This document shows, one piece after another, positions 13,711-62,574 of a stretch of 62,574 nucleotides of DNA. The notes under the pieces were generated by a model, which was given only the letters and a program-made list of their open reading frames with translations, ran no database searches and was not told the origin of the DNA. This DNA is from an uncultured Candidatus Saccharimonas sp. (GTDB taxonomy: Bacteria > Patescibacteriota > Saccharimonadia > Saccharimonadales > AQU-01). Numbering within the stretch: the stretch's first letter is position 1; the number at the start of each line of letters is the position of its first letter. The position numbers were made by a program, and so were the translations under genes. The stretch spans positions 1-62,574 of the forward strand of contig CALRGT010000005.1 of assembly GCA_943358095.1 (NCBI GenBank), given 5' to 3'.

Positions 13711-13799
13711 TCATTGAATCATTGATGCATTGACCATTGATTCATTAATTGACCCATTTAGCATGTGTCATTGTGGCTTCAATGATAAATATATTCAAT
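13711..13799. repeat. Dispersed quasi-palindromic intergenic repeat, copy B (left arm plus core; right arm truncated)
   Basis: CATTGA at 13712, 13720, 13728 and 13735, and CATTAA at 13743. Core CATTG-tggctt-CAATG at 13769-13784. About 80% identical to copy A over roughly 60 nt. Confidence 0.75.
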
Positions 13800-13844
13800 C
13801 TTGCTATTTCACTGAAGCCTCTAAACTGTTATGCTTATGCTAAT

Positions 13845-29605: not shown

Positions 29606-31210
29606 ATGCTTATGTCACATGATATTCGACAAGATGAAGAGTTGTCTACCGCTAGGCGCGCCAAAGTTCTAGGTATGGACTACTTCGATACCTACAAGAA
29701 TAAAAGGCCTCTATTCAAACAAGTCCTAGCAGTTGGAGATATTAGGAAGTACCGCGTCGTACCTTTATTTGCAGATGAACACAATATTCTATTTGGTTTA
29801 ACTACTACGACTTCTCAACAGACTATCAACGGCTTAACACAGCATTTTCAAGACCAGCGAGTTGAGTATACTCTTATATCTGATACGGGTTTCAATGACT
29901 TTATGTTGCTGTACGACCCACCTAGGCAAGTTATTTATCAAGATATTGAAGTAGCATCAGCCGGAAATTCTGAACTGCTCAAAAAGGTATCTGCCATACT
30001 CGAACAGATTAAGGCCGATGACATGTTGGCTTATTTAGTTCAACAGGCTCACCGCCTCAATGCATCAGATATCCACTTTGAGAATCAGTCCAAATTTGCC
30101 AGAATCCGTTTTCGTATTGATGGAGTGCTGCATCCAATAGCGCAAATCAGCTTCGCTAAGGCTCATATTCTGATCTCAGCCATAGCCAGTGGAGCAAACG
30201 TCTCGACCGCCTCATTAGATGCGCAGCAGGGGCATATCGCAGAGAACACGAAAATGGCGGATGGTACTCAAGTTAGTATCAACTTGCGTGTCGAGACCGT
30301 ACCAGCTATCAACGGCATGGATATTGTCATGCGTTTATTCAATATGGACCAGAGTATGTACAACCTAGACAGATTGGGTCTATCTGACAAAGAAAGAAAA
30401 GTAGTAGAAGATATTATAGCTAAGCCGAGTGGTCTAGTCATGGTTGTCGGGCCTACAGGTTCTGGTAAGACTACGACTTTATATTCGATACTTCAAACTT
30501 TGAACACAGACGAGAATAAGATTATAACCATTGAAGATCCTGTTGAATATCAATTCGAAGGCGTGACTCAGATATCGGTAAACAATACTCCTGAGCATAA
30601 AACTAGCTTTGCCGATCAACTTAGAGCAGTATTAAGGCTCGATCCAGACGTCGTGATGGTTGGAGAGATTCGAGATAATGATACAGCCAAAACTGCTCTG
30701 CAGGCTGCTCTGACGGGACACCTTGTGTTGTCTACTTTTCACGCTAGTTCTGCGTCGGCTGCAATTACACGCATTATGGATATTATTGGCGAGAATCCAC
30801 TATTTCTATCTGCTATTCGATTAGTTATGGCGCAGCGACTTGTTAGGCGCCTAGATGATGCTATTAAGCAGCCCTATAAGCCTGACGAAAAGACCATGCA
30901 ACTAATTAAACAGGTAGTTGACGGACTTCCTGCTTCTGTAGAAAAGCCAAGTTTGGAAAACCTGCAACTCTATAAGCCAGGTGTATCTGAAGAAAATCCT
31001 TACGGCTATAAAGGCCAGTTGGCCTTGCGCGAACAATTCATAATGAGTGGACCAGTATATGAACTCTTGCAGAAGAGTCAAAAGTTAACAACTCAAGATA
31101 TTGAGGCTTCGGCTATAGAGAGCGGGATGACTACAATGTTGCAAGAAGGTGTTCTTAAGGCTATTAAGGGCGAAACTACACTAGAGGAAGTATATCGAGT
31201 CGTAGGATAG
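29606..31210 (+). CDS. pilB: Type IV pilus / type II secretion assembly ATPase (PilB/GspE family)
   Basis: N-terminal T2SSE_N-like domain, Walker A GPTGSGKTTT, Walker B VVMVGEIRD and His box GHLVLSTFHA. An alternative leaderless start is ATG 29612, 7 nt after TATACT (29599-29604). Confidence 0.88.
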   Translation: MLMSHDIRQDEELSTARRAKVLGMDYFDTYKNKRPLFKQVLAVGDIRKYRVVPLFADEHNILFGLTTTTSQQTINGLTQHFQDQRVEYTLISDTGFNDFMLLYDPPRQVIYQDIEVASAGNSELLKKVSAILEQIKADDMLAYLVQQAHRLNASDIHFENQSKFARIRFRIDGVLHPIAQISFAKAHILISAIASGANVSTASLDAQQGHIAENTKMADGTQVSINLRVETVPAINGMDIVMRLFNMDQSMYNLDRLGLSDKERKVVEDIIAKPSGLVMVVGPTGSGKTTTLYSILQTLNTDENKIITIEDPVEYQFEGVTQISVNNTPEHKTSFADQLRAVLRLDPDVVMVGEIRDNDTAKTALQAALTGHLVLSTFHASSASAAITRIMDIIGENPLFLSAIRLVMAQRLVRRLDDAIKQPYKPDEKTMQLIKQVVDGLPASVEKPSLENLQLYKPGVSEENPYGYKGQLALREQFIMSGPVYELLQKSQKLTTQDIEASAIESGMTTMLQEGVLKAIKGETTLEEVYRVVG

Positions 31211-40915: not shown

Positions 40916-42268
40916 ATGGCAAAGAGAAATCAGGTGAAATATGTTTGTAGTAGCTGTGGCGCATCATCGGGCACTTGGTCAGGGCGTTGTAACGCCTGTG
41001 GTGAATGGAATACACTACAAGAACAAATTGTTATCACTGCCGGTAGTATCGCTTCTGGTGGAAACGTACTAAGCTCACAAAATGTTTCCGAAGTGTCTAA
41101 GCATGATTCTGCAAAAAGATTATTAACAGGCATAGATGAGGTCGACAATGTTTTAGGCGGTGGATTCGTTGCTGGTAGCGTAACTTTAATTGCAGGTCAG
41201 CCAGGTATAGGTAAAAGTACTTTATTATTGCAATTAGCAGACGCTGTCGCCAAAAAGCACAGTGTTTTATATATTAGCGGCGAAGAATCGGCGCATCAAG
41301 TAGGTCTAAGGGCTCAAAGACTAGGAGTTAAAAGCACTAACCTGCAATTATCAATGAGTACTGTAGCCGATGACATCGCGTCAACTATTGCGGAAGGTAA
41401 GTACGATTTAATAATTGTTGATTCTATTCAGGCGATATCTGCGAACGCTATATCTTCGGCAGCCGGCACGGTTAGTCAAATCACAAACAGCACTCAATTG
41501 TTGATAGTGGCAGCCAAACAGACCAACACTGCCCTAGTTGTAGTTGGTCATGTCACCAAAGAAGGTTCAATTGCTGGACCTAAAGTATTAGAGCACGTGG
41601 TTGATGTGGTGTTGCAATTAGAAGGTGATAGATATGGTGGATTTAAGCTTTTAAGAGGCGTAAAGAATCGTTTTGGATCTACTAACGAAACAGGTATTTT
41701 TGAAATGGTTGAGCAGGGGCTAATGCCCGTCAAGAATCCTTCAGCAGCGTTATTGGCGGAGCGTCAAGTCAGCGATGGATCTGTCGTTCTGGCTACTATG
41801 GAGGGCACGAGACCGTTGTTAGTCGAAGTTCAGGCACTTGTAAACAAAACAAGCTATGGCTACCCCAAACGAGCAGCTAGTGGGATGGATTTGAATAGAT
41901 TAAATCTGCTAGTTGCAATGTTAGAGCGCAGGACAAAACTTAATTTAGCAGAATTTGATATTTATATTAACATCGTAGGCGGAATCAAGATTACGGAACC
42001 AGCCGCAGATTTAGCCGTATGTATGGCTATTGCTTCTGCCGCTAAAGGGATGCAGCTCAAGAAAAACGCTGTAGTATTCGGCGAAGTTGGACTATCTGGC
42101 GAAGTTAGGCATGTGCCATATATCGACAAAAGAGTAGCAGAAGCAAAGAAGCTAGGTTTTGACGGAGCAATTGGTCCAATTATCAAAACGGGGAAGCAGC
42201 CTACTGGATTAAGCGGCGTGTTGGATGTTAAGTCTGCTCTAAATCAATTTCTCGAAAAAGATAGCTAG
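40916..42268 (+). CDS. radA: DNA repair protein RadA/Sms
   Basis: Zn ribbon CSSCG..CNACGEW, Walker A GQPGIGKST, KNRFG motif and a Lon-protease-like C-terminal domain. Confidence 0.93.
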   Translation: MAKRNQVKYVCSSCGASSGTWSGRCNACGEWNTLQEQIVITAGSIASGGNVLSSQNVSEVSKHDSAKRLLTGIDEVDNVLGGGFVAGSVTLIAGQPGIGKSTLLLQLADAVAKKHSVLYISGEESAHQVGLRAQRLGVKSTNLQLSMSTVADDIASTIAEGKYDLIIVDSIQAISANAISSAAGTVSQITNSTQLLIVAAKQTNTALVVVGHVTKEGSIAGPKVLEHVVDVVLQLEGDRYGGFKLLRGVKNRFGSTNETGIFEMVEQGLMPVKNPSAALLAERQVSDGSVVLATMEGTRPLLVEVQALVNKTSYGYPKRAASGMDLNRLNLLVAMLERRTKLNLAEFDIYINIVGGIKITEPAADLAVCMAIASAAKGMQLKKNAVVFGEVGLSGEVRHVPYIDKRVAEAKKLGFDGAIGPIIKTGKQPTGLSGVLDVKSALNQFLEKDS

Positions 42269-47488: not shown

Positions 47489-49522
47489 ATGACGACTGAC
47501 AGTTTGGTGACTGAGATTAAAGGTATTGGTGAAGCTATGAACGAAAAGTTCAAGTCTATCGGCATTACTGATGTGAATGATCTGATTGATTATTATCCGC
47601 GTCGTTATGATGATTACTCGCAGATTCAGAGCATTGATAGTCTGGAGCCAGGCGCAGTGACTATTAAGGCCAAGATCGGTCAGATTAAAGGGCATTATGT
47701 GCGGCGCGGATTGCATATTACTGAAGCCGTGGCTAGTGACGGTGACGGTAGCGTTCGATTAGTTTGGTTCAACCAGCCTTACAGGGCTGCTGCTATTAAG
47801 CCGGAAACAGATTATTTTATATCAGGTCAATTCGAGCTTAGTAATCGCCGACTTGGGATATTAAATGCTTCTATGGAGTTAGTTAGTGAATTTCCTGTAA
47901 GCACCGCTAGAATAGTGCCAATTTACCGCGAAACTAAGAACCTAAAGTCTGTACAGATAAGACGAGCTCTGAGAGATGTTGGGCCATTGATCAATAAATT
48001 GCCTGAAACTTTGCCTAGTTGGCTTATAAAAAGCCACAAACTCATGACTAGGTCGGAAGCTATTATGGCCATTCACTTTCCGAAGGATGCCGACCACATG
48101 GCACTCGCTCAAAAGAGGTTAGGCTTCGAGGAGGTTTTTGAGCTTACACTAGCGAGTTTGATCAATAAATACGAATTACTAAAAGACCAGGCTCTTCCAA
48201 TACCTTTTAAACCAAAGTTGGCGCAAGAGTTTGTCTCGCATTTGCCGTTTACTCTTACGGACGCTCAGCGCAAAGTAATTTGGCGAATTTATCAGGATTT
48301 AGAGAAGCCGCAGGCAATGAATCGACTGATTGAGGGTGATGTTGGGTCTGGTAAAACAGTTGTGGCGACTATGGCCGCGCTAATGGCGTTGGAACAGGGA
48401 TATCAGGTAGCATTAATGGCACCGACTGAGCTTTTGGCAAGACAGCATGCCGACACTATCCACCGCTTGTTGACGCCTCTAGGTTATGCTGACCAAGTTG
48501 GCTTACTAGTCGGTGGGCTCAAGCCAGCTCAGAAAAAACAAGCACAAGAAAGAATAGCGAGTGGTCAGATAAGGTTTATGATAGGTACTCACGCTCTTAT
48601 TCAATCGTCGGTCGATATGCACAAACTAGGTTTAATAATTGTAGATGAGCAACACCGTTTTGGAGTCGAACAGCGTAAGAAGCTGCAGGCTAAGGCCGGT
48701 CATGCCTTGCATGTTTTAAGTATGACAGCCACACCAATTCCTCGTAGCTTGGCGCTGACTTTGTATGGTGAAATGGACATTTCAATTATTGACACCAAGC
48801 CCGCCGGCCGTAAGACCATAATTACCAAAATTTCTTCTCCAAATTCACGGCCTGCGCTTTATGAAAAAATCGAAAAACAGTTAATAGAGGGTAGACAGAT
48901 GTTTGTCGTTACGCCTCTTATTGTTGATTCCGAGGTGCTAGTAGCGGCATCAGCCGAAAAAGTCTATAAAGATATGAAGTTGGCATTTGCGAATCGCCGG
49001 GTTGGTTTAATGCACGGTAAACTTAAAAGTGATGAGAAAAATGAAGTCATGGAGCAGTTCGTCGCCGGTAAGATAGATATTCTTGTTTCGACTACTGTGA
49101 TCGAGGTTGGTGTAGATGTGCCGAACGCTACTGTAATGTTGATAGAAAACGCCGAGCGATTCGGTTTGGCTCAGATTCATCAGTTGAGGGGCCGAGTTGG
49201 TCGAAGTGAACATCAAGGCTATTGTTATTTGATGATGGGTGACTCTAAGGCTCCTAGTCGTCGTTTGTTGGCGCTAGAGAGTTCGTCTGATGGTTTCGCT
49301 TTGGCTGAGCTAGATTTAGAAATGAGAGGACCGGGTGCAATATACGGAACAATGCAGCATGGCCAGCTCGATCTTCGTGTAGCAAAACTAAGCGATATAA
49401 AACTAATTGCTAGCGCCCGCGAATCTGCCCAAAGCTTCATAGATAAGGACGAAGATCTGCTACAATATAGTCATCTTGCTCAACGTGTAAACAAATTGCG
49501 AGCAGTCACAAATCTAAATTAA
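47489..49522 (+). CDS. recG: ATP-dependent DNA helicase RecG
   Basis: Wedge/OB N-terminus, GDVGSGKT, VDEQHRFG and helicase-C motifs (QLRGRVGR). Confidence 0.93.
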   Translation: MTTDSLVTEIKGIGEAMNEKFKSIGITDVNDLIDYYPRRYDDYSQIQSIDSLEPGAVTIKAKIGQIKGHYVRRGLHITEAVASDGDGSVRLVWFNQPYRAAAIKPETDYFISGQFELSNRRLGILNASMELVSEFPVSTARIVPIYRETKNLKSVQIRRALRDVGPLINKLPETLPSWLIKSHKLMTRSEAIMAIHFPKDADHMALAQKRLGFEEVFELTLASLINKYELLKDQALPIPFKPKLAQEFVSHLPFTLTDAQRKVIWRIYQDLEKPQAMNRLIEGDVGSGKTVVATMAALMALEQGYQVALMAPTELLARQHADTIHRLLTPLGYADQVGLLVGGLKPAQKKQAQERIASGQIRFMIGTHALIQSSVDMHKLGLIIVDEQHRFGVEQRKKLQAKAGHALHVLSMTATPIPRSLALTLYGEMDISIIDTKPAGRKTIITKISSPNSRPALYEKIEKQLIEGRQMFVVTPLIVDSEVLVAASAEKVYKDMKLAFANRRVGLMHGKLKSDEKNEVMEQFVAGKIDILVSTTVIEVGVDVPNATVMLIENAERFGLAQIHQLRGRVGRSEHQGYCYLMMGDSKAPSRRLLALESSSDGFALAELDLEMRGPGAIYGTMQHGQLDLRVAKLSDIKLIASARESAQSFIDKDEDLLQYSHLAQRVNKLRAVTNLN

Positions 49523-49563
49523 GTATCAAAGGAATTCGGCCGTCAACGGTCGTAAATTATCAT

Positions 49564-50445
49564 ATGTGGTCAGGCACAACAGTAACTAAGTTTTCTGGTC
49601 GTATCTGGGGAGCTCATCAAAAAATCGACAGAGTAGCACGGAGGCATCTTGTCCGTATGGTAGACGATAATCTTGCGTTTCCTAGCGGCGGTAAGATACT
49701 GCAGTTTGAAGGAAGAAACGGTCCTGACGGTATCAAAAACAAAAGCCCAGCTAAGGATGAGCCTTGGCATTATTACAGTCCCTTCAAAGATGATAACGAC
49801 AAGTTTATCGAGCTAATTACCAGCCACTATGATCAGTTAGTCAAGGAGCTAAAGGCCGGTAATAAGGAGCGAACAGCTTTTGAGGCGGCTTGGTTGGCGC
49901 ACGCACTAGTTGATGGTTTGACGCCGGCTCATCATTATCCGTACGAAGAAAAGTTAACAGAGATTCGTGGCGGAGAAGGTATTGAAACGAGAGACACTCT
50001 AAAAGGCAAAATTGTAATGCCCGGTAACACCAAGCGCGAAATGATTAGTAATAACTGGAAGATGTGGGGATTCGGTGGATTGCTGTCGACTCATGGCTTT
50101 TTTGAATTTGGTGTGGCTAGTATTATCAAGCCAATTAGCTTTGGTGAAGCCGTGCCGACCGAGCATGATCGCCTTATAATGCTAGATATTGGGCCAGTAG
50201 AGTGGTTTAAGCGTGCTGCGCGCGAGATAGCTGTGCTGGATATGTATGACCGTTACTGCGTGACTGGCTGGAACGCCAAATTAACTCTTGAAGTTAGGCA
50301 GAAGCTGATCCCTGTAATTATCCGGACGGTAACTTTGACTTGGTATAGTGCCATGGTAGATGCAGGCCTAGTAGACAAGAGTCGCAAAGTCACCAAAATT
50401 AAATTTGTATCTAATAAAACAAGTAAAGCAGTAGAGGCTAGCTAA
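49564..50445 (+). CDS. Hypothetical protein, possibly of the zinc-dependent phospholipase C / S1-P1 nuclease-like fold
   Basis: The N-terminal WGAHQKIDRVA and the later AWLAHALVDGLTPAHH resemble the W..H...A and H..xD...P.H metal-ligand motifs of that superfamily. The similarity is weak. Confidence 0.4.
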   Translation: MWSGTTVTKFSGRIWGAHQKIDRVARRHLVRMVDDNLAFPSGGKILQFEGRNGPDGIKNKSPAKDEPWHYYSPFKDDNDKFIELITSHYDQLVKELKAGNKERTAFEAAWLAHALVDGLTPAHHYPYEEKLTEIRGGEGIETRDTLKGKIVMPGNTKREMISNNWKMWGFGGLLSTHGFFEFGVASIIKPISFGEAVPTEHDRLIMLDIGPVEWFKRAAREIAVLDMYDRYCVTGWNAKLTLEVRQKLIPVIIRTVTLTWYSAMVDAGLVDKSRKVTKIKFVSNKTSKAVEAS

Positions 50446-50448
50446 GTT

Positions 50449-50985
50449 ATGAGAGTAATCGCTGGCAGGCTCGGCGGTCGACAGTTTGATGCACCGGCTG
50501 GCCACAAAACTCATCCAATGAGCGAAAAAGCTCGAGGTGGATTATTCAATGCGCTTGGCGATATTGAAGATTTAACTGTGCTAGACGCTTTTAGTGGTAC
50601 TGGCGCATTGTCATTTGAGGCCCTTAGCAGGGGAGCAAAACACGCAACTGCAATAGATAGTGACCGCAACGCCCAAGACACGGTCGTGCGTAATATTAAA
50701 ACGCTAGCATTATCCGGCAAGATCAAACTTATTCGCGCAAACGCCAGTGCTTGGTCGGACAATAACCCAGACAATAGTTATGACTTAGTTTTTTGCGATC
50801 CACCATATGACGACATTAAGCCAGATATATTAGAAAAATTAGCTCTACACGCCAAAACAGGTGGGTTAATTGTCTATTCGCTCCCTCCTACCGAAACCTT
50901 TAAGTTGGACGAAACTGACTACGATTTACTGGCCTTCAAATCATATGGTGATGCAACGCTAGCTTTTTATCGAAAAATTTCGTAA
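50449..50985 (+). CDS. rsmD: 16S rRNA (guanine966-N2)-methyltransferase RsmD
   Basis: VLDAFSGTGALSFEALSRGA SAM motif and FCDPPYD (DPPY). Confidence 0.85.
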   Translation: MRVIAGRLGGRQFDAPAGHKTHPMSEKARGGLFNALGDIEDLTVLDAFSGTGALSFEALSRGAKHATAIDSDRNAQDTVVRNIKTLALSGKIKLIRANASAWSDNNPDNSYDLVFCDPPYDDIKPDILEKLALHAKTGGLIVYSLPPTETFKLDETDYDLLAFKSYGDATLAFYRKIS

Positions 50986-51000
50986 AATACACTAGTTCAT

Positions 51001-51085
51001 GCGGATGTGGTGGAATTGGTAGACACGCTAGCCTTAGGAGCTAGTGTCGCAAGACGTGAAGGTTCAAGTCCTTTCATCCGCACCA
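51001..51085 (+). tRNA. tRNA-Leu (anticodon TAG), class II with long variable arm and encoded CCA
   Basis: Acceptor GCGGATG/CATCCGC. Anticodon stem CTAGC/GCTAG with loop CTTAGGA. Variable arm GTCGCAAGAC. T arm GAAGG-TTCAAGT-CCTTT. Discriminator A plus CCA. Confidence 0.9.
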
Positions 51086-51093
51086 AAATAAGC

Positions 51094-51119
51094 CGACCCA
51101 AAGGGGTCGTTTTATTTTG
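51094..51119 (+). terminator. Rho-independent terminator after tRNA-Leu
   Basis: Stem CGACCC (51094-51099), loop aaag, stem GGGTCG (51104-51109), then TTTTATTTT. Confidence 0.6.
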
Positions 51120-51136
51120 TGCAAATAAGTCTTGAG

Positions 51137-51202
51137 CCTTCAACCCCTATAAGGGGTGAAGGTTAGCCCGCGCCCACGGCCGGACGCTGTCCTTTCATCC
51201 GG
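51137..51202 (+). other. Structured GC-rich segment containing a split duplicate of the tRNA-Leu T-arm/acceptor 3' half
   Basis: 10-bp hairpin at 51137-51162. GTGAAGGTT (51156-51164) and GTCCTTTCATCCG (51189-51201) repeat tRNA positions 51056-51064 and 51068-51080, separated by a 24-nt insert. Confidence 0.6.
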
Positions 51203-51323
51203 TCCTCAACCAATGCTTACGCACTTGCGATAATACCTGAATAAACGATTAAGTATTGAAAAGACAGCTAATTAAATTAGGTAGGTGAAGGAATGGCCAT
51301 ATTCCTATATAATAGAACCAATA

Positions 51324-52634
51324 ATGGCACTAACAACACAACCATACAAAGGCACACGGGATTTCTATCCTGACGAAAAGCGCACACAAAATTATATTTT
51401 TGGAGTGATGCGCTCTGTTTCTGAGCGTTTTGGCTATGAGGAGTATGACGCGCCAATACTTGAGCCTATAGAACTTTACCAGGCTAAGAGTGGTGCAGAG
51501 ATCGTCAGCGAACAGACATACTTATTTACTGATCGTGGTGGCCGTCAGGTTGCGATTCGCCCCGAGATGACGCCTACTGTAAGCCGTATGGTAGCCGGCC
51601 GCCGGCAAGAGCTTGGATATCCGCTACGTTGGTACAGTATCCCTAATCTTATGCGCTATGAAAGACCGCAGCGTGGCAGACTACGTGAGCACTGGCAATT
51701 AAATGTAGATATATTTGGCGTTAAAGGACTAGAGGCGGAGCACGAAATTATAGCTTTGGCCGACGCAGTTATGCAGGGCTATGGAGCCAAACGGGACATG
51801 TACACTGTTAAGCTCAACAGTCGAAAGTTGATGGACTATTTGTTGGCAGACTATTTAGGTTTTGACGCCGAGCAGTCAACACGAATCGCAAAAATTATTG
51901 ACCATATGCATAAAGTTTCTACAGAAGTATTCCAAAAAGAAATTGATGATGTTTTAAGCGACTCACAACGGAGTAACAACACCGGGCAAAAGCTTGTTGA
52001 TTTGTTGAGTGTTAAGTCCCTAGACCAATTACCGTCTGAAGTTGCCGACAACACAGTAGCTGTTGAGTTGCAGAAATTATTAGATCTTTTGCAGTCATCT
52101 GGTATCACCAATGTCGTCTTTGATATTACGATCATGCGAGGCTTTGATTATTACACCGATATTGTATTTGAAGTAATGGACACTGACCCAGAAAACAATC
52201 GTTCAATGTTTGGTGGTGGCCGTTACGATGGTTTAGTTGGATTATTTGGTGTTGAGCCAGTCCCAACAGTTGGTTTTGGAATGGGTGATGTGACTATCGC
52301 TAACTTTTTGACTAGTCATAGCCTTATGCCGGAGCTAAAAGTCGTTACTGATGTTTATGTTGTGCTAGTCGGTGATGTTTATAGCCTTGCTCAAGCTACA
52401 ATTGCTAGTTTGCGAAGTCAGGGCCTAAATGTGGCCGTCGACACATCTGGTCGTAAGCCTGGCGATCAAATCAAGAACGCAGTAAAGAAGAACATTAACT
52501 TCGTCTTATTTATTGGCGAAAAAGAACTAGCAGACGGCAAATTTAGTCTTAAGAATTTAGCTGATGGTCAAGAATCAAATCTATCGGTAGAAGAAGTTGC
52601 CAGCGCAGTAAAAGCCTACCACCAAAGCAAATGA
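51324..52634 (+). CDS. hisS: Histidine--tRNA ligase
   Basis: Class II motifs (YEEYDAPILE, DRGGRQVAIRPEMT, RYERPQRGRLREHWQ, GGGRYDGL) and an anticodon-binding domain. ATG at 51324 lies 10 nt after TATAAT (51308-51313) and is preferred over GTG 51285. Confidence 0.92.
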   Translation: MALTTQPYKGTRDFYPDEKRTQNYIFGVMRSVSERFGYEEYDAPILEPIELYQAKSGAEIVSEQTYLFTDRGGRQVAIRPEMTPTVSRMVAGRRQELGYPLRWYSIPNLMRYERPQRGRLREHWQLNVDIFGVKGLEAEHEIIALADAVMQGYGAKRDMYTVKLNSRKLMDYLLADYLGFDAEQSTRIAKIIDHMHKVSTEVFQKEIDDVLSDSQRSNNTGQKLVDLLSVKSLDQLPSEVADNTVAVELQKLLDLLQSSGITNVVFDITIMRGFDYYTDIVFEVMDTDPENNRSMFGGGRYDGLVGLFGVEPVPTVGFGMGDVTIANFLTSHSLMPELKVVTDVYVVLVGDVYSLAQATIASLRSQGLNVAVDTSGRKPGDQIKNAVKKNINFVLFIGEKELADGKFSLKNLADGQESNLSVEEVASAVKAYHQSK

Positions 52635-53071
52635 CCGCTACAAACCATGTCGTAACTGGTGCACTTATTGCCATAACTATAAGTAACCCAGTTATTGGCC
52701 TGCCTTTGGCATTGTTGTCGCACTTGGTGCTTGATTCGATTCCACATTTTGGACTAGAAGATCTAAAGCTTGCTAAATTTGTTCCTATATTAATGACAGA
52801 TATTATATTCGCCGGTTCTGTGCTGGTGGCCTTACTTATTATTAGGCCTGAAAATTATTGGTTAATGGTAGCGGGTGGCATTATGGCTGCAAGCCCTGAT
52901 CTATTATCTATTCCATTATTTATTAGCATGATAAAGCGACGCAAGCATAAATTTGGTGTTGTGCAGCGATTTTTGCAGAAAATACAATGGAGCGAAACTG
53001 CTAAAGGTCTAGCTATAGAAGTGGTATGGTTTGGTTTTATTGGTGCTTTATTGCTACAAAAAATTCATTAG
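52631..53071 (+). CDS. Membrane protein, DUF457/YdjM-like putative metal-dependent hydrolase
   Basis: Four predicted TM segments. The N-terminal TNHVVTG, HLVLDSIPH and ASPDLL resemble YdjM-family motifs. ATGA overlap with hisS. Confidence 0.5.
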   Translation: MTATNHVVTGALIAITISNPVIGLPLALLSHLVLDSIPHFGLEDLKLAKFVPILMTDIIFAGSVLVALLIIRPENYWLMVAGGIMAASPDLLSIPLFISMIKRRKHKFGVVQRFLQKIQWSETAKGLAIEVVWFGFIGALLLQKIH

Positions 53072-53092
53072 GCTAGAAAAAGGCATTAAATA

Positions 53093-54394
53093 TTGGTACA
53101 ATCTTCAGTCATGCGTATAAACAAATCAATCGACTCCGAAACTAAAATTACATTAACCATAACAGCTGACGAAGCTTTCTTGGCAAAAACCAAAGATCAC
53201 ACTCTTCGACATATGGCACGAGACATGAAGATACCTGGCTTTCGTGCTGGTAAAGCGCCTCTTGCAATTGTCGAAAAGCAAGTTGATTCAAATATGTTGC
53301 AATCTGACTTTTTGGACGAGGCAATTAACCGACTATACACTGATGCAATTAAGGCTGAAGGCTTGCGCCCTGTCGCTAATCCAGAAGTTTCACTAAAGAA
53401 GTTCGTACCTTTTACGGTACTAGAGTTTGAGGCTAAGGTAGAAGTTCTTGGTGAAATTAAGCTTGCTGACTACAAAAAGATCAAAAAAGCGCTAAAAGTT
53501 GTTGCAGTAACTGCCGAGGATGTAAATCTAATTATTAACAACTTGCAGACTAGACTAGCCGAGAAATCTGAAGTTAAGCGAGCCTCAAAGGATGGCGACG
53601 AAGTTATCATCGACTTTACTGGCGTAGACGCTAAAGGCGTACACATTGCTGGAGCTGAAGCCAAGGATTATCCATTAACTATTGGTAGCAACAGTTTGAT
53701 TCCTGGATTCGAACCAGAACTTATCGGCTTAAAAGCTGGCGAAGAAAAGACTTTTGATATCGTATTCCCAAAGGATTATCAGGCAAAAGCATTGGCAGGG
53801 ACAAAAGTTACCTTTACAACCACTGTACATACAGTCAACGAACTTAAATTACCAAAAGCTGACGACGATTTTGCAAGTAAAGCTGGACCTTTTGAAACTC
53901 TTAAAGCACTCAAAGATGATATCAAGAAGCAATTAACATTTGAGCGCGAAGCAGACGCCCAAAAGAATCTCGAAAACGAATTACTTGCAGAAATTACAGC
54001 TAAGTCAAAAGTTACTATTCCGCAAACAATGACAGAAGATCAAGTACAACGCACAGAGGACGAAGAGCGCAAAAACCTATTGTATCGTGGTCAAACATGG
54101 CAAGAACACTTGGCTGAAGAGGGCGTTAGCGAAGAGCAACATCGTGCTCAAAATCGACCAGCAGCCGAAGAATCTATTAAAACTGGCCTAATATTAGCCG
54201 AAATAGCCGAGCTAGAAAAGATAACCTTTACTCCTGACGAAGTAGACATCAGAATAGAGCTGCTAAAAGGCCAGTATACTGACCCAGCAATGCGCGAACA
54301 GCTGGCATCACCAGATAACCGCCGCGACATTGAAGGCCGTATCATGACAGAAAAGACTGTTGATGCTATCGTTGCCTACGCTCTAGGCAAGTAG
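53093..54394 (+). CDS. tig: Trigger factor
   Basis: Ribosome-binding PGFRAGKAP motif, FKBP-like middle domain (IPGFEPELIGLKAGEEKTF) and a helical C-terminal domain. TTG start at 53093; an alternative is ATG 53111. Confidence 0.9.
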   Translation: MVQSSVMRINKSIDSETKITLTITADEAFLAKTKDHTLRHMARDMKIPGFRAGKAPLAIVEKQVDSNMLQSDFLDEAINRLYTDAIKAEGLRPVANPEVSLKKFVPFTVLEFEAKVEVLGEIKLADYKKIKKALKVVAVTAEDVNLIINNLQTRLAEKSEVKRASKDGDEVIIDFTGVDAKGVHIAGAEAKDYPLTIGSNSLIPGFEPELIGLKAGEEKTFDIVFPKDYQAKALAGTKVTFTTTVHTVNELKLPKADDDFASKAGPFETLKALKDDIKKQLTFEREADAQKNLENELLAEITAKSKVTIPQTMTEDQVQRTEDEERKNLLYRGQTWQEHLAEEGVSEEQHRAQNRPAAEESIKTGLILAEIAELEKITFTPDEVDIRIELLKGQYTDPAMREQLASPDNRRDIEGRIMTEKTVDAIVAYALGK

Positions 54395-54404
54395 TACTAA
54401 ATAA

Positions 54405-54431
54405 TTAGCACTCACTATTGACGAGTGCTAA
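54405..54431. promoter_or_regulatory. CIRCE operator (HrcA binding site), perfect consensus, upstream of clpP
   Basis: TTAGCACTC (54405-54413), N9 actattgac, GAGTGCTAA (54423-54431). Confidence 0.85.
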
Positions 54432-54446
54432 TTCGGTCTGTACAAT
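54418..54446 (+). promoter_or_regulatory. clpP promoter TTGACG-N17-TACAAT overlapping CIRCE; the ATG lies 7 nt after the -10 box
   Basis: TTGACG at 54418-54423 (spanning the spacer and right arm), TACAAT at 54441-54446, ATG at 54454. Confidence 0.5.
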
Positions 54447-54453
54447 TTTTACT

Positions 54454-55059
54454 ATGAGCGAACTACTTAGACCTACTAAATCTGCACTGATTCCGACTGT
54501 TATCGAAGGTGAAGGTCGAATGGAGCGCGCCTACGATATTTATAGCCGCCTACTACGCGATAGAATTATATTTTTGGGCGAAGATGTTAACGAGCATACC
54601 GCCAACTTGATTGTTGCGCAGCTATTATTCCTGGACAACGAAAGTAACGACAAAGACATATTCTTATATATTAACAGCCCCGGTGGTAGTGTTTACGACG
54701 CCTTAGCCATCTATGACACTATGCAATATGTTAAGAGCGACATCCAGACTGTCGGCATTGGCGTACAGGCCAGCGCAGCGGCATTCTTGCTAAGTAGTGG
54801 CACCAAGGGCAAGCGCACGATATTGCCAAACTCAACTGTTATGATCCACCAGCCATCAAGCGGCACTAGAGGTAAAGTAACGGATATGGAAATCGACCTT
54901 AAAGAATCTCTTCGTATTAAACACCGTCTAAATGAAATAATGGCTCGTAATACTGGCCAAACAGTTAAGAAAATTACCGAAGATATGGAACGCGATTATT
55001 GGATGACAGCCGAAGACGCCAAAAAATACGGCGTGGTTGATAAGGTTATAAGCAAATAG
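54454..55059 (+). CDS. clpP: ATP-dependent Clp protease proteolytic subunit
   Basis: Catalytic Ser in GVQASAAAF, His in MIHQPS and Asp in [14 protein letters not shown] at 54454 is preferred; the track's TTG at 54418 lies inside CIRCE. Confidence 0.93.
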
Positions 55060-55060
55060 A

Positions 55061-55190
55061 CAATTTATCATTTTTCATTGACCATTTGACATTTATTTAA
55101 CAATTGGACATTTAATCATTGTAGCTTCAATAAGAAATGACAAATGATTAATTAATGTATAAATGTATCAATGACAAAATGAATAAATTA
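55061..55190. repeat. Dispersed quasi-palindromic intergenic repeat, copy C (full length)
   Basis: The left arm is a CATT(T/G)N series at 55068, 55076, 55083, 55090 and 55109. Core CATTG-tagctt-CAATA at 55117-55132. The right arm is a complementary (T/A)CAATG/AAATGA series. It shares CAATTTATCATT and ATTAATGTAT..CAATG with the reverse complement of copy A. Confidence 0.75.
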
Positions 55191-55409
55191 TTATATATCC
55201 TTGACTCAAGGCTGATTCTTAGCTAAGCTATAAGATAAGAAGTAGTATAAGTAAGTATGTGCACTTATTTCTGATCAGTTATCGTGCACCAAAAAGCCGA
55301 CTTAGTAATCTTCGCTCTACAAATATAAAACCAAAAAGTTCTCTATTCGGGCACCGAAAAATTATAAATAACACTAAGTTTAAGGTTAAGCAGGGAGTAC
55401 TTTATTAGC

Positions 55410-58400
55410 ATGGCTAAAGCGATAACAACAACACCTAAAGAACGAGTATTTTATACAAAGACCGATGACAGTTTGGATCTACCAAATCTAGTCGATCACC
55501 AAAACAAATCATTCCAATGGTTTGTAGAAGAAGGACTAGGCGAACTATTAGCCGAGATTAGTCCCATCGATGACTACACAGGAACAAAACTTACCCTATC
55601 GTTCAAGGATTATCGTTTTGAAGATCCAAAATTGTCAGAAGCAGAAGCACGAGAGAACAACGTTAGCTATGACGCACCTCTAAAAGCTACTGTTGTTTTG
55701 ACAAACAAAGTTACTGGCGAAGTAAAAGAGCAAGAAATCTACCTTGGTGATTACCCATGGATGACGACTCGTGGAACTTTCGTTATTAACGGTGCTGAGC
55801 GTGTTGTTGTAAGTCAGTTGATTCGTTCAGCTGGTGTGTTCTTTACTGCCGACAACAAAGGTTCTCACAATCTATATGGCGCCAAAGTTATCCCTGGCCG
55901 TGGCGCATGGTTAGAGTTCGAGACCGCCGCTAACGGTGCTATTTTTGTTAAGATTGACCGCAAGCGCAAAATTCCTATCACGACTTTGCTACGAGCACTA
56001 GGTATGACTGACATTCAGATGCGCGAATCATTTGCTCATGTCGACCAAGGCAAGCTCAACTACCTAGAAGCAACAATGGAAAAAGACCCAGCTAAAGCTA
56101 ATAACGAAGCTTTGATTGAGGTTTATCGCCGTTTGCGACCAGGTGATCTTGCTACAGTAGAGAATGCCCGTTCACTACTAGAGAACATGTTCTATAACTA
56201 CAAACGATTCGACTTCAGTAAAGTTGGTCGTTATAAGATTAACAAGCGTTTGAATCTTGATGTTCCAAATGTTTTAGAGAAGCGCGTTATGCGTCTAGAA
56301 GATTTGATTGCGATTATTGCCGAAATTATTCGTCTTAATAATACTCAAGAACCAGCTGATGATATCGACAGTCTAGCTAACCGACGCGTTAAATTGGTTG
56401 GTGAACTTGTTCAGCGCCAATTCCGTATTGGTTTACTACGAATGGAACGAAATACTAAAGACCGAATGAGCATGAGTGAAATCGAGACAGTGTCACCAGC
56501 TCAATTGATCAATGCTCGTCCAATTGTTGCTGCTGTACGCGAGTTCTTCGCAAGCTCACAATTGTCGCAGTTCATGGATCAGATCAACCCACTAAGCGAA
56601 CTCGCTCACAAGCGACGCCTAAGCTCTATGGGACCTGGTGGTTTGTCACGCGAACGTGCAGGTTTTGAAGTTCGTGACGCTCATGCAACTCACTACGGAC
56701 GTATTTGTACTGTAGAAACACCTGAAGGTGCCAACATTGGTTTGGTGCTAAACCTTGCAAGCTATGCTCGTATTAATGACTATGGTTTTATTGAAACACC
56801 TTACCGCAAGGTAATTAACGCTGTTTCTGCTGCAAAGTCAGTTGGATATGAAGCTTCAGTTAATCTTGAAGACGAAAAAGGTAAAGTTATCGTTAAGGCT
56901 GGTGCTACTATCACAGCCGAAAACGCTAAGAAATTAGCAGAAGTTAAGAAGCAGGCTACATGGCCAGTACGCGCTAAAGTTACTAAGGAAATCGTTTATC
57001 TTGACGCTTCAGACGAAGAGCACGCAGTTATTGCCAGTGCTACTGAAGATATTGATGGTGACGGTTACTTCGTAGACGAGCGCGTAAGTGTTCGTAAGTA
57101 TCTAGCTTCTGGAGAAGTAGACGCTAACGAAGTTACTCACATGGATGCATCACGACGCCAGATTATTGGTTCTAGTGCTGCATTGATTCCGTTTATTGAA
57201 AAGAACTACGTTTATCGCTCATTGATGGGTAGTAACCAGCAGCGTCAAGCCGTACCTCTTATTGTTCCTGTAGCGCCAATTGTTGGTACTGGAATGGAAG
57301 GTATCGCAGCTCGTAACACTGGTCAGCTTATAGTAGCTGAAGCAGATGGTGAAGTTTTGAGTGCAAGCGCTGATGAAATCGTCGTTAAGTACAAAGAACG
57401 AACCGTTAAATATCACCCACAACACTATGTACGCAGTAACGAAGGCACTTGTATCAACCACAAAGTTGTTGTCAGTACTGGCGACAAAGTTAAGACTGGT
57501 GATCCTTTAAGTGAAGGTATGTCAGTTGCTGGTGGTGAGCTAGCTCTTGGTAAAGACTTAACTGTTGCGTTCATGCCTTGGTCTGGATACAACTTTGAAG
57601 ACGCTATCATCATTTCTCGCAAATTAGTCGAAGATGATACTTTGACATCTATTCATATCGTCGACTTCATGACCGAAGTTCGCGAAACTAAGTTGGGGCC
57701 TGAAATTGTCACACGAGATATTCCAAACGTTTCAGAAGAAGCTTTGCGACACCTTGATGACGACGGAATTGTCCGAATTGGTGCCGAAGTACATCCTGGC
57801 GATATTCTAGTAGGTAAAATCACACCTAAGGGCGAACAGGAACTAAGTTCTGAAGAACGATTGCTACGTGCTATATTTGGTGAAAAAGCTAAAGAAGTTC
57901 GCGATACTTCACAGCGTATGAGTAACGGTAAACACGGTAAAGTTGTTGGCGTAAAAGTATTCTCACGAGCTAATGGACACGAGCTTAAGGCTGGTGTTTT
58001 GATGCAGATTCAGATCTTCGTGGCTCAGATGCGTAAAATTGCTGTCGGCGATAAGCTAGGTGGACGTCACGGTAACAAGGGTGTTATCGCTCGTATTCTA
58101 CCAGTAGAAGACATGCCATTTAACGAAGCTGGTATGCCAGTAGATATCGTACTAAACCCACTAGGTATTCCTTCTCGTATGAACATGGGTCAGCTATTTG
58201 AAACTCACCTTGGCATCGCTGCTAAGATGCTCGGTATTAACGTTGCTAGCCCATCATTTAACGGTGTTAGCGTCGACAAAATTCGCAACCTGCTAAACGA
58301 AGCTGGACTACCAGAAGACGGCAAGCAGCAACTATTTGACGGCCGAACTGGCGAACCATTCAGAGAGCGAACAACTGTTGGCTCAATGTACATGATTAAG

Positions 58401-59009
58401 CTAAACCACATGATCGCAGATAAGATTCACGCTCGATCAACTGGACCATACACAATGGTTACACAGCAGCCACTAGGTGGTAAAGCTCAAAACGGTGGTC
58501 AGAGATTTGGAGAAATGGAAGTCTGGGCTCTAGAAGCTTACGGTGCTTCACACACTCTACAAGAAATGTTGACCATTAAGTCAGACGACGTTTACGGACG
58601 ATCAAAGGCCTACGAATCAATCATCAAGGGTACAGAAATTGTTGGACCAAAGGTGCCAGAAAGCTTTAACGTGTTAGTCAAGGAATTGCAGGGTCTAGGT
58701 CTTAAAGTTGACTTGATGACTGCCGATGCAATAATTGACGCCGAAAAAGTCCTTGCAGCAAGTATCAAGGAAGAAGCCGCTCACTTACCAGTAGTAGATG
58801 TACCAATGGATATGGCTTCAGCTGTAGATGTTACGACTGATGCAGTAGCTGACGAATTTCTAGAACTAGAACTTGACTCAGATATGCCAGTTGGTGGAAT
58901 AGAAGAAATAGAAAACGACCAAGACTTTACTGTAACTTTAACTGATGACGAAAACGGTCAGGATGTTACTGCCAAGGATGACGATAACGAAGGAGGATCA
59001 GCACTATGA
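55410..59009 (+). CDS. rpoB: DNA-directed RNA polymerase subunit beta
   Basis: Similarity across the full length of RpoB (e.g. GDKLGGRHGNKGV, NPLGIPSRMNMGQ, GGQRFGEMEVWALEAYGA), with an acidic C-terminal tail. 1199 aa. Confidence 0.97.
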   Translation: MAKAITTTPKERVFYTKTDDSLDLPNLVDHQNKSFQWFVEEGLGELLAEISPIDDYTGTKLTLSFKDYRFEDPKLSEAEARENNVSYDAPLKATVVLTNKVTGEVKEQEIYLGDYPWMTTRGTFVINGAERVVVSQLIRSAGVFFTADNKGSHNLYGAKVIPGRGAWLEFETAANGAIFVKIDRKRKIPITTLLRALGMTDIQMRESFAHVDQGKLNYLEATMEKDPAKANNEALIEVYRRLRPGDLATVENARSLLENMFYNYKRFDFSKVGRYKINKRLNLDVPNVLEKRVMRLEDLIAIIAEIIRLNNTQEPADDIDSLANRRVKLVGELVQRQFRIGLLRMERNTKDRMSMSEIETVSPAQLINARPIVAAVREFFASSQLSQFMDQINPLSELAHKRRLSSMGPGGLSRERAGFEVRDAHATHYGRICTVETPEGANIGLVLNLASYARINDYGFIETPYRKVINAVSAAKSVGYEASVNLEDEKGKVIVKAGATITAENAKKLAEVKKQATWPVRAKVTKEIVYLDASDEEHAVIASATEDIDGDGYFVDERVSVRKYLASGEVDANEVTHMDASRRQIIGSSAALIPFIEKNYVYRSLMGSNQQRQAVPLIVPVAPIVGTGMEGIAARNTGQLIVAEADGEVLSASADEIVVKYKERTVKYHPQHYVRSNEGTCINHKVVVSTGDKVKTGDPLSEGMSVAGGELALGKDLTVAFMPWSGYNFEDAIIISRKLVEDDTLTSIHIVDFMTEVRETKLGPEIVTRDIPNVSEEALRHLDDDGIVRIGAEVHPGDILVGKITPKGEQELSSEERLLRAIFGEKAKEVRDTSQRMSNGKHGKVVGVKVFSRANGHELKAGVLMQIQIFVAQMRKIAVGDKLGGRHGNKGVIARILPVEDMPFNEAGMPVDIVLNPLGIPSRMNMGQLFETHLGIAAKMLGINVASPSFNGVSVDKIRNLLNEAGLPEDGKQQLFDGRTGEPFRERTTVGSMYMIKLNHMIADKIHARSTGPYTMVTQQPLGGKAQNGGQRFGEMEVWALEAYGASHTLQEMLTIKSDDVYGRSKAYESIIKGTEIVGPKVPESFNVLVKELQGLGLKVDLMTADAIIDAEKVLAASIKEEAAHLPVVDVPMDMASAVDVTTDAVADEFLELELDSDMPVGGIEEIENDQDFTVTLTDDENGQDVTAKDDDNEGGSAL

Positions 59010-62000
59010 TGCGAAGATACAACAACAGTACAGATATCGCCGATTTTAACGCAGTTAGATTAGCTGTCGCCAGCCCTACTGATATTTTGGAATGGTCACA
59101 CGGCGAAATTACTAAGCCAGAAACAATCAACTATCGCACTCAGAAACCTGAGCGCGATGGTCTGTTCTGCGAAAGAATCTTTGGACCAGTTAAAGATATA
59201 AACCCACATGACGCTAAGTTCAAGGGCATGCGCAGCCGAGAAGCAGCAGTCGACAAGAACGGCGAAATCGTTACCAAAAGCATCGTACGACGTGAGCGAA
59301 TGGGTCATATTACTCTCGCTAGTCCAGTTGCACACATTTGGTTCCTTCGTGGGACACCGTCAGCTATTGGTCTAGTACTAGGCATGACTGTTAAGAACTT
59401 GGAAAGAATCGCTTACTTTGCCAGCTACATCATCAAAGAAGCTGATACTGCAAAGCGCGATACTATTCTAGCTGACAAAGAAGCTCAATACGTAGCAGCA
59501 CAAGAAGCTATTCGAATGCGCTACGAAAACGATGCTCACGCTGAGAACGCTGATGTTAAATCATTAGCAGCAGCTCAAACTAAAGAAATCGAAGAACTTA
59601 TTGCTGACTACGAACTAGCAAAAGAACAGCTTCAAGGTTTAGAGCGCTTACGACTTATCGGTGAAACTGATTACCGTAACCTACCAGATGATTTCCAGGC
59701 TTTGATTAAGGTTGGAATGGGTGGCTCAACACTAAAAGACATTCTAGAAACTGTTGACCTAGAAGATCTAATCAAGGATCTAAACGTAGAAGTTGAAGAA
59801 ACTAAGGGTCTTCGCAAGAAGAAGATCATGAAGCGACTTCGATTACTAGAAAGCATGCACCGTGCCGGCATTAAGCCAAGCAGCTTGTGTGTCACAGTAT
59901 TGCCAGTGATCCCTCCGGATCTTCGCCCTATGGTTCAGCTAACTGGTGGCCGTTTTGCGACATCAGACCTCAATGACCTTTACAGAAGAGTCATTAACCG
60001 TAACAATCGTTTGAAGAAATTGATTGATTTGAACGCTCCAGAAGTTATTCGTCGTAACGAGCAACGCATGCTTCAAGAGGCAGTTGACGCTCTAATCGAC
60101 AACAACAACGCTCGTTCAGGCCGTGCTGTAGCCGCTACAGGTCAGCGCCGCCGTCTTAAGTCACTCAGCGACATGTTAAAGGGCAAGCAAGGACGATTCC
60201 GTCAGAACTTGCTTGGTAAGCGTGTTGACTACTCTGGTCGTTCAGTAATCATTGCTGGTCCAGAACTTAAGATTTTCCAATGTGGTATGCCAAAGATGAT
60301 GGCGCTTGAACTATTCAAGCCATTTGTTATCGGTTACCTGATCACTAATGAGTTTGCACATAACATTCGTAGCGCAACTCGTATGATTGAAGCTGGTGAA
60401 ATCGCTGTATGGGATGCTCTCGACGAAGTAATTAAGGGCAAGTACGTGTTGCTAAACCGTGCGCCATCACTTCACCGTTTGAGTATCCAAGCTTTCCAAC
60501 CGATTCTAATTGAAGGTAAGGCTATCCAACTTCACCCATTAGTATGTAAAGGCTTTAACGCCGACTTTGACGGTGACCAAATGGCTGTCCACTTGCCACT
60601 TTCTGACGCCGCACAGGCCGAAGCTCGTGACATTATGGTTGCCAGCAAGAACTTGCTCAAGCCAGCAGACGGTTCGCCAATCCTACATATCGAACAAGAT
60701 ATCGTGCTTGGTTGTTACTACTTAACATACGAGCGCCCAGGTGCTCAAGCTGAACAGAAGTCATTCTCTGGTATTAACGAAGCTCTAATGGCTTACGACA
60801 GCGGTGTTATCGAATTGCAAGCAAAAGTACGTTTGCCGTTCCGTGGCGCTATGGTTGAAACGACTCTTGGACGCGTATTGTTTAACGAGATCTTCCCAGA
60901 AGATTTCCCGTTCCAGGACGAAACAATGACCAAGAAGAAGTTGCAGCAAGTTGTAGCATTGTCATACCAGAAGTACGGTCAATCAATAACTGCTACTATT
61001 GCAGATGATTTGAAAGACATCGGCTTCTTGTACGCTACTAAATCTGGTATCTCAATGGGTATGAATGACTTTAGTGACATTCCAACTCTTGATGCAATGA
61101 TTCAGGCTGGTGAAGATAAGACTACAGAAATCAGTGACCAATATGACCAAGGTTTCATTACAGAAGACGAGCGATATCGCTTAACAGTCGATACTTGGAT
61201 GAAGGCTGACGCTCAAATCCAACAGACTCTAAGTGAGCAGTTTGCTACAGAAGATAGCTCAATGGCTATCGCCGTTATATCTGGTGCTCGTGGTAACATC
61301 AGCCAGGTTAAGATGGCTGTCGGTTTGCTAGGTGTAACAACTGATGCAACTGGTCGTGCAATCGAACTTCCTATCAAGTCAGGCTACAAAAAAGGTCTTA
61401 CTCCACTAGAATACTTTACTGCTACTCGTGGTTCACGTAAGGGTATGATCGACACAGCCCTAAAGACAGCCGACTCAGGTTACCTAACTCGTCGTCTAGT
61501 AGATGTCAGCCAGGACGTATTCACTATTGCTGAAGATGTTGCTGACCCAGGATTCCCAATTTTCCGAAGCGACTCAGAAGAAATTGGCGTACCTTATGGT
61601 TCACGATTACGCGGACGATTCGCAGCTGAAAATATTGCAAAATTAGTCAAAAAAGGTGAGTTAATCACTATCGAAATATCTCAAGCAATTGAAGATGACA
61701 GCACTCTAGATGGTGTTAAGATCATGAGCGTTCTAAGTTGTACTAGCGTTAAGGGTGTGTCACGTAAGTCTTACGGACTAGACCCAGCTACTGGCGAACT
61801 AGTTGCTGCATATCACCCAGCCGGTGTTATTGCTGCACAAAGTATCGGTGAGCCAGGTACACAGCTAACTCTAAAGACATTCCACTCAGGTGGTGTTGCG
61901 GGTGAAGACATCACTACAGGTCTTCCACGTGTCGAAGAATTGTTCGAAGTTCGTACTCCTAAGGGTCAAGCATTCTTAAGCGAACTTGGTGGAGCAGTAT

Positions 62001-62574
62001 CAGTCTGGGAAGATGGTGACCATTACGTAGTACAGATTACAGCCTCAGAAGATGCGATTGTTGAACTAGCTGTTGCTGGTAGAATTAATCAAATCAAGAA
62101 TAATGCTGAAGTAGCAATTGGCGACATAGTTGCTTCTGCTGAAGACGGTAGCGATCCATTAATCTCACCAGTTGCTGGCAAAGCGCATGTTACCAAGAAG
62201 CTGATTACAATATCACCTACTAAGCAGAGTGTTGCTCGCTACGAAATCCCAAGTTACAAGCAAGTTCTCGTTAAAGATGGCGACACAGCAGTAGCTGGTC
62301 AAAGACTTACTAACGGTTCAATTAACTTGCATGAGTTGATGGCATTGCAAGGTGTTGAGGCAACTCAGCGCTATATCATGAACGATATTTTGAAGATCTT
62401 TGCATCACAGGGTCAAAACATTAACGACAAGCACCTTGAAGTTATTGTTAGACAGATGTTTAGTCGAGTACAGATAGAAGAAACAGGCGATAGTCAGTTT
62501 GTTATCGGCGACGTTGTAAGTAAATTGGCAGTAGTTGAAGCTAATGAAGAACTAACCGCTGACGACAAGAAGCC
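59006..62574 (+). CDS. rpoC: DNA-directed RNA polymerase subunit beta-prime (3' end lies outside the window)
   Basis: Absent from the ORF track because there is no stop codon in the window. ATG at 59006 overlaps the rpoB stop (ATGA), with AGGAGG at 58991-58996. My own translation gives [64 protein letters not shown] (60557 onward) and [21 protein letters not shown]. Confidence 0.95.
   Translation, partial: [1189 protein letters not shown]

Follow-up and report, generated by a model that had tools for sequence, protein, structure and literature searches.

Bacterial RNA polymerase is generally described as carrying two zinc ions, both in the beta' subunit. The ligands of the second beta' site (Zn2), which we take to be C814, C888, C895 and C898 in E. 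coli, and the role of this site in enzyme assembly were reportedly set out by Markov et al. in 1999. In E. coli, antiterminator RNAs and proteins dock at the first site (Zn1; C70/C72/C85/C88), which also helps to open weak promoters (PMC9378689; bioRxiv 10.1101/2020.01.02.893370); HK022 put RNA, for one, binds this zinc-binding domain where the RNA exit channel opens (PMC9378689). Here we describe rpoC, the gene for beta', in a stretch of 62,574 nucleotides from an uncultured Candidatus Saccharimonas sp. (GenBank assembly GCA_943358095.1, contig CALRGT010000005.1; this whole stretch is hereafter called the window), whose source belongs to the Saccharibacteria (TM7, class Saccharimonadia). Our comparisons show that both zinc-ligand sets of beta' have been lost and indicate that the first domain probably persists in a metal-free state and that the enzyme probably needs no structural zinc. 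The evidence is best explained by a zinc-independent form of bacterial RNA polymerase shared across the clade.

The rpoC gene lies at 59006..62574 on the forward strand and is partial: 1189 codons fall within the window and the gene continues past its end. No stop codon interrupts the frame that starts at 59006. The encoded protein begins MMRRYNNSTDIADFNAVRLAVASP, and its sequence contains exactly the peptide quoted in an initial annotation of this DNA. Despite the truncation, the translation scores 1286.3 bits against the TIGR02386 rpoC equivalog (cut-off 963.5), and a near-identical copy at locus L001, 1267 codons long when counted from the aligned start, supplies the C-terminus. The catalytic Mg-binding motif NADFDGD is present at residues 518-524 (60557..60577, forward strand) and is invariant across 121 relatives in our full-length beta' alignment (A2). 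Because this motif is intact, the window rpoC is, as judged from its sequence, a working polymerase subunit and not a pseudogene.

The initial annotation had proposed that the N-terminal zinc-binding domain of this protein has lost all four cysteine ligands without an insertion or deletion. Using beta' residues 1-446 as the query against solved beta' chains (C. difficile 7l7b; 8i23; 8x6f; E. coli 8g1s), we found that HMMER pairs residues 10-145 without a gap, which bears out the proposed indel-free alignment with nearly identical flanks. Gap-free alignment to beta' chains in the PDB places the equivalent of the zinc-binding domain at residues 60-98 (59183..59299, forward strand), and the CxC...CxxC cysteines of each solved chain fall over P67, D69, V82 and N85. 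Translation and the HMMER alignment locate the former first knuckle, P67-H68-D69 (E. coli C70-L71-C72), at 59204..59212; together with conservation, they place the former second knuckle, V82-D83-K84-N85 (E. coli C85-E86-K87-C88), at 59249..59260, both on the forward strand. The four codons in question are 59204-59206 (P67), 59210-59212 (D69), 59249-59251 (V82) and 59258-59260 (N85), such that the interval 59204-59260 spans exactly the P67 codon to the N85 codon. At the level of both codons and alignment columns, all four cysteines have been replaced as originally described.

In position, length and basic residues this segment matches a canonical Zn1 domain. It sits in the same place, between PETINYRT...IFGP and RRERMGH, and has the same 33-residue length, a spacing from IFGP to RRER shared by the window, all Saccharibacteria and all canonical sequences examined. 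It also retains the same basic residues and the same glycine after the second knuckle. Unlike canonical domains, it presents Pro, Asp, Val and Asn in place of the four cysteines. Two of these replacements, Pro and Val, are incapable of metal ligation. The CxC-x12-CxxC pattern is absent from it, and no alternative set of Cys or His ligands could be placed in the domain under any alignment tried. Because it offers neither the cysteine ligands nor a substitute Cys/His set, zinc binding by this domain is not expected.

The second site has fared no better. When beta' residues 681-1189 were aligned to solved beta' chains with HMMER, the segment 'iaedvad.pg' paired with 'retdCgtrkg', and 'svlsCtsvkgvsrksyg' paired with 'svltChseygvCakCyg'. 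The column of the first Zn2 ligand (E. coli C814) is occupied by V845 (61538..61540), and the remaining three fall within a relic with the sequence CTSVKGVSRKS (61739..61771), in which C912 corresponds to C888, S919 to C895 and S922 to C898; both features are on the forward strand. In 121 Saccharibacteria proteins, residues vary widely in the V845 column (A, D, S, P or E in relatives); C912 may instead be A, S or T, and S919 may be P, N or G, whereas S922 is Ser in 119. As at the first site, the surroundings persist: the blocks LTRRLVDV...DPGF and ...YG.D.A.G...AAQSIGEPGTQ are conserved relative to canonical proteins. In contrast to these, the CxxC pair has become S/P-x-K-S, the first column varies and C912 is not conserved. 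The canonical arrangement, a cysteine in the ...DC... block followed by C-x(4-9)-C-x2-C before YG...AAQSIGEP, is absent from the window beta'.

This second loss is not peculiar to the window. Zn2 is lost in all 75 GTDB copies that reach the second site and in 120 full-length homologues; the Zn2 pattern, with a Cys in the first block and C-x(4-9)-C-x2-C, is kept in 120/120 beta' proteins from other Patescibacteria. The median number of cysteines per full-length beta' is 6 in Saccharibacteria versus 14 in other Patescibacteria, and this difference of eight equals the size of the two ligand sets. The initial annotation was therefore right about the loss of the Cys4 site but understated it, as the second beta' zinc site is also gone and the trait is clade-wide in sampled Saccharibacteria.

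The extent of the first-site loss emerges from three sets of homologues. The 120 best database homologues of beta' residues 1-446 (identity 64-83%) are labelled Saccharibacteria, Saccharimonadales or TM7 wherever a name is given, and 119 of them contain a cysteine-free 33-residue segment of the same type. A GTDB scan with one genome per species gave 80 loci, whose titles nearly all read Candidatus Saccharibacteria or Saccharimonadales, and the first domain lacks cysteines in these 80 species genomes. Among database homologues, the domain is without cysteines in 239 Saccharibacteria sequences. Finally, an exhaustive HMMER search with residues 31-125 against 1.84 billion 50%-identity cluster representatives (~15 billion proteins) identified 4048 proteins at an E-value of 0.001 or better. 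Among the best 150 of these 4048 representatives, 135 have all four cysteines and 15 do not. All 15 carry the motif DINP...AVDK, and two are garbled or frameshifted fragments. The cysteine-less set includes the full-length proteins P0130, P0131 and P0133, only ~50% identical to the window protein. The named database neighbours of the P0133 lineage are Saccharibacteria, with first-site cysteines missing from 120/120, and these deep lineages (~50% identity) lack both zinc sites.

A cysteine-bearing protein with Saccharibacteria-like flanks, P0207, marks the other side of this boundary. The names carried by its 119 best relatives are Uhrbacteria, Kuenenbacteria, Kerfeldbacteria, Buchananbacteria, Nomurabacteria or 'Patescibacteria group', and CxC-x12-CxxC is kept in 120/120 beta' proteins of this set of other Patescibacteria. 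Scoring the four columns in ortholog alignments, as the initial annotation had suggested, thus separates cysteine-less Saccharibacteria from other Patescibacteria that retain Cys4. Because 120/120 other sampled Patescibacteria keep both Cys4 motifs, the trait marks Saccharibacteria, and within our sampling the alignments identify the double loss as a shared derived character of this group and not of Patescibacteria generally. No second rpoC was found within the 11-24 kb loci examined, the rest of those genomes not having been screened; a second copy elsewhere in these ~1 Mb genomes is unlikely.

We then asked how strongly the cysteine-free domain is maintained, taking as our measure the mean majority-residue frequency in the 121-sequence Saccharibacteria alignment, which averages 0.79 over the whole protein. 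Residues 60-98 reach 0.93; the second-site relic stands at 0.70-0.74 and a lineage-specific insertion at residues 146-212 at 0.67. Within the former zinc-binding domain, K63, D64, I65, N66, P67, D69, K73, G74, R76, R78, A81, V82, D83, K84, G86, V89 and T90 are invariant or nearly so, with frequencies among the 121 sequences of 98% for P67, 93% for H68, 99% for D69, 97% for V82, 100% for D83 and 99% for K84. The position of the fourth ligand is variable (N85 may be N, K, H, S or A), and the turn-forming G86 next to it is invariant. There is not a single insertion or deletion in the segment, even across lineages only ~50% identical.

The retained residues include several that face nucleic acid in E. 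coli. With an offset of three residues, K71, K73, R76, R78 and K84 correspond to E. coli K74, K76, K79, R81 and K87; K71 and K84 are invariant in 75 sequences and are K or R in 86-99% of the 121. K74 and K87 of E. coli touch upstream DNA on its non-template strand, and promoters with weak -35 contacts depend on them (bioRxiv 10.1101/2020.01.02.893370); E. coli L78 and K79 are part of the interface with the HK022 put antiterminator RNA (PMC9378689). Residues that define the scaffold or face nucleic acid have thus been kept, and the metal centre alone has been replaced.

The DNA underlying this segment points in the same direction. For the window, the 80 GTDB loci and one deep-lineage locus, a 123-nucleotide segment occurs in 82 distinct DNA versions that encode only 30 peptide versions. 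Among these 82 haplotypes, every one of the four Pro codons occurs at P67, four different Val codons occur at V82, and six Arg codons at each of R76 and R78; synonymous sites are saturated while the amino acids are fixed. Saturated synonymous sites combined with fixed residues imply long-term purifying selection on the residues now present, and the former zinc-binding domain as a whole is, on this comparative evidence, under strong purifying selection.

The insertion at residues 146-212 (window 59441-59641) comprises ~65 residues relative to the beta' proteins of E. coli and Firmicutes. It is predicted with high confidence to form a long antiparallel helical hairpin (predicted local distance difference test score, pLDDT, ~90) and is least conserved in the N-terminal half. 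Mycobacterial beta' aligns without interruption across 146-212, pointing to an insertion at this position there too.

Together, these observations suggest how a zinc-free beta' might work. The first domain would remain a beta-ribbon, now lacking metal, where the RNA exit channel opens. Packing of I65, P67, A80/A81 and V82 would take the place of the metal centre, together with polar or Asx-type turns (N66, D69 and D83-K84-N85-G86). In this form the domain may still contact nascent RNA, upstream DNA and partner proteins. The second-site relic would likewise fold without metal, as a now ordinary and more variable piece of the fold, and the polymerase would be independent of structural zinc. The 'remodelled exit-channel element' of the initial annotation remains an inference.

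Several points weigh against this picture. In two AlphaFold2 predictions, the first domain was modelled with low confidence: with residues 1-446 and 75 cysteine-less homologues, pLDDT is <50 over most of residues 38-98, and with all 1189 residues and 121 full-length homologues, block means are 29-56 for residues 31-120. With pLDDT at 29-56 for residues 38-117 in both runs, retention of the ribbon fold can be proposed only tentatively. The highly conserved H68, D69 and D83 could in principle form a non-thiolate metal site. Our inspection covered the best 150 cluster representatives and 120 other Patescibacteria, and independent losses elsewhere are possible. Finally, a simple cysteine economy is weakened as a cause by locus L082 from another Patescibacterium, which has a cysteine content of 0.28% (10 of its 15 cysteines lie in beta') and keeps both Cys4 motifs, that is, all eight ligand cysteines. 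Because this lower-cysteine locus retains its ligands, general cysteine thrift is insufficient to account for the loss in Saccharibacteria.

The low AlphaFold2 confidence permits no structural conclusion on the first domain. Both models contain a short hairpin (80-82/88-90) around the former second knuckle, again at low confidence. The region of the second-site relic (residues 831-930), predicted without metal, reaches pLDDT 83-91, consistent with a stable metal-free fold.

A domain in decay might also be expected to yield poor structure predictions. The cysteines could have been lost by drift once Saccharibacteria, with a reduced regulatory repertoire, could do without the functions of the domain (hairpin-dependent pausing and termination, antitermination and help at weak -35 promoters), leaving a floppy loop as a vestige. 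The small genomes and epibiotic lifestyle of these organisms would suit such a history, as would the low AlphaFold2 confidence for the segment and the below-average conservation of the second-site relic. Drift, however, should have brought shortening and divergence, and the segment is instead among the best conserved of the protein (0.93 versus 0.79), free of insertions and deletions across lineages ~50% identical, saturated at synonymous sites and still equipped with its nucleic-acid-contacting lysines. We consider a decaying vestige unlikely.

A second alternative retains the metal and changes only its ligands, with H68, D69, D83 and N85 or E87 forming a His/carboxylate site. D69 (99%) and D83 (100%) are almost invariant and H68 reaches 93%, and D69 and N85 stand exactly in former ligand columns. 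The other two of the four columns, however, hold P67 and V82, which allow no coordination; H68 is Phe or Asn in 9/121 sequences, some deep lineages differing in their entirety; the N85 column may hold N, K, H, S or A; and H68 and D83 are one position out of the knuckle register. Such a site would also leave the parallel loss at the second site, with its Ser, Pro and Ala replacements, unexplained. With H68 missing from some relatives and two ligand positions taken up by P67 and V82, we regard continued metal binding of this kind as quite improbable.

An artefact of sequencing, assembly or binning, or a pseudogene copy, can be set aside with near certainty. The window does come from a metagenome-assembled genome, and a few database fragments of this family, unrelated to the window, show obvious frameshifts (P0158, P0198). 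Nevertheless, identical residues recur in hundreds of assemblies produced independently by many studies, the frame of 1189 codons stays open with its catalytic motif intact and its family score over the cut-off, and a separate assembly with 4% DNA divergence encodes an identical N-terminus. This last sequence is the best GTDB relative, JBAXJI010000006.1 (isolate ELA371), which is 100% identical to the window protein over the first 446 beta' residues and 95.9% identical to the window DNA over 8.5 kb by blastn. An identical N-terminus on a DNA background diverged by ~4% identifies it as an independent assembly of a close relative. That the same residues appear there and recur in 82 DNA haplotypes agrees with the initial annotation, which had argued against a frameshift or misalignment. 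The two Saccharibacteria fragments, P0158 and P0198, are garbled or frameshifted within or just past the former zinc-binding domain; unlike the window, they look like assembly errors in other datasets.

With a metal-free first domain and a lost second site as the preferred reading, possible causes of the loss include scarce zinc at the host surface, oxidant attack on vulnerable thiolate-zinc sites, and a neutral ratchet following compensating substitutions. A more far-reaching proposal can be offered only tentatively, as we doubt that all of its parts hold jointly: that this is the first cellular multisubunit RNA polymerase known to have a largest subunit wholly free of structural zinc, that the relic has acquired lineage-specific properties, and that the loss was an epibiotic adaptation and not neutral. 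Under that proposal, the lineage-specific properties could be, for example, altered hairpin-dependent pausing and termination or a new exit-channel partner, and the adaptation would be to zinc withheld at the host surface or to oxidant exposure.

Under the same proposal, these properties of the relic may also be linked to unusual trigger-loop variants in the same class. At the trigger loop (61865-61903, beta' residues 954-966), Saccharibacteria display two forms. A canonical-like form, L(T)L(K/R)TFH(S/G)GG, is found in the window and in ~45/80 of its close GTDB relatives. The other form, LSLDSKHR(S/A)GAV or LKLDSKHGGG, is found in 28/80 GTDB relatives, in the deep lineages and in most of the broader set of 120 homologues. 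By E. coli numbering it amounts to M932L, R933D and F935K, and the LSLDSKHR(S/A)GAV form has an extra residue after the catalytic His. The sequence in 114/120 other Patescibacteria is TMRTFHTG. Replacement of substrate-contacting residues in the catalytic trigger loop is unusual.

Zinc use elsewhere in the window provides an internal control. The radA gene (40916..42268, forward strand; TIGR00416, 516 bits) encodes a protein with an intact N-terminal Cys4 zinc finger, C11-x2-C14-x10-C25-x2-C28, and is the only window gene whose product has paired CxxC motifs. The window also encodes a class II fructose-bisphosphate aldolase and an aminopeptidase N, zinc enzymes by family. Genome-wide abandonment of zinc is ruled out by these three proteins. 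Cysteine is very scarce, making up 0.48% of residues over 55 open reading frames (ORFs) of the window and 0.46% over 80 related loci. A glutaredoxin (3887-4135) and a thioredoxin-reductase-like protein (4203-5183) each have a single CxxC motif. Cysteine is missing altogether from a pilus assembly ATPase of the GspE/PilB type with 534 amino acids (29606-31210, forward strand). A tetracysteine zinc motif is common in this family, and the ATPase could be a second case of a lost Cys4 site in this genome.

Upstream, rpoB (beta subunit; 55410..59009, forward strand; TIGR02013 and NF001616 above cut-off) directly precedes rpoC, its stop codon overlapping the rpoC start (ATGA). The interval 47489-59009 contains recG, an unassigned ORF of 293 amino acids, rsmD, hisS, an unassigned ORF of 146 amino acids, tig and clpP, followed by rpoB-rpoC; the usual rplK-rplA-rplJ-rplL genes are not upstream of rpoB-rpoC in the window. 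The order recG-rsmD-hisS-tig-clpP-rpoB-rpoC is shared with locus L081 of the P0133 lineage, whose beta' is only ~50% identical and in which rpsL-rpsG-fusA-tuf come after rpoC. In L082, the recG-to-rpoC order is absent and the arrangement is instead rpoB-rpoC-ftsK-recA.

Five ORFs of the window had no family match in the collection used for each. Those at 7316-7654, 13749-15101 and 17800-18624 have none in Pfam at an E-value of 1e-6, and the one at 13749 also has none in NCBIfam at 1e-10; those at 49564-50445 and 52631-53071 have none in NCBIfam, the only collection searched for them, at an E-value of 0.001. These five encode 112-450 amino acids, and the 450-residue product has 5 cysteines.

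In the full-text literature we searched, most subscription journals lying outside it, we found no description of a zinc-free or cysteine-less beta' in Saccharibacteria, the candidate phyla radiation or Patescibacteria; a preprint on endosymbiont polymerases (10.1101/2020.09.07.285775) goes no further than listing the cysteines of the E. coli protein. A zinc-free variant of beta' is thus probably unreported. The Saccharibacteria enzyme represents a natural experiment in which functions of the domain need the metal and which need only its scaffold, an opportunity to study how obligate epibionts economize on metals or thiols, and a clean rpoC sequence signature for the group. It is also within experimental reach, since at least one oral TM7 sequence (P0065, oral taxon 348) carries the motif. 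Oral TM7 strains have been cultivated on Actinomyces hosts, and one relative is genetically tractable.

The closest parallels lie outside RNA polymerase. Zinc ribbons have been disrupted repeatedly among ribosomal proteins. Makarova, Ponomarev and Koonin reportedly described, in 2001, cysteine-less ('C-minus') versions of the zinc-ribbon ribosomal proteins L31, L33, L36, S14 and S18, and the lid of adenylate kinase is zinc-free in Gram-negative bacteria. In each of these cases, as in the window beta', a Cys4 ribbon or knuckle gave way to a metal-free version and the protein remained functional. Features of a C-minus protein recur here: homology to a Cys4 domain, replacement of the cysteines and retention of the domain itself. 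For the ribosomal proteins, however, a zinc-bearing paralogue often coexists with the C-minus form and the two are exchanged under Zur control. In Saccharibacteria beta', by contrast, the change is fixed in a whole class and affects two independent sites within one essential enzyme.

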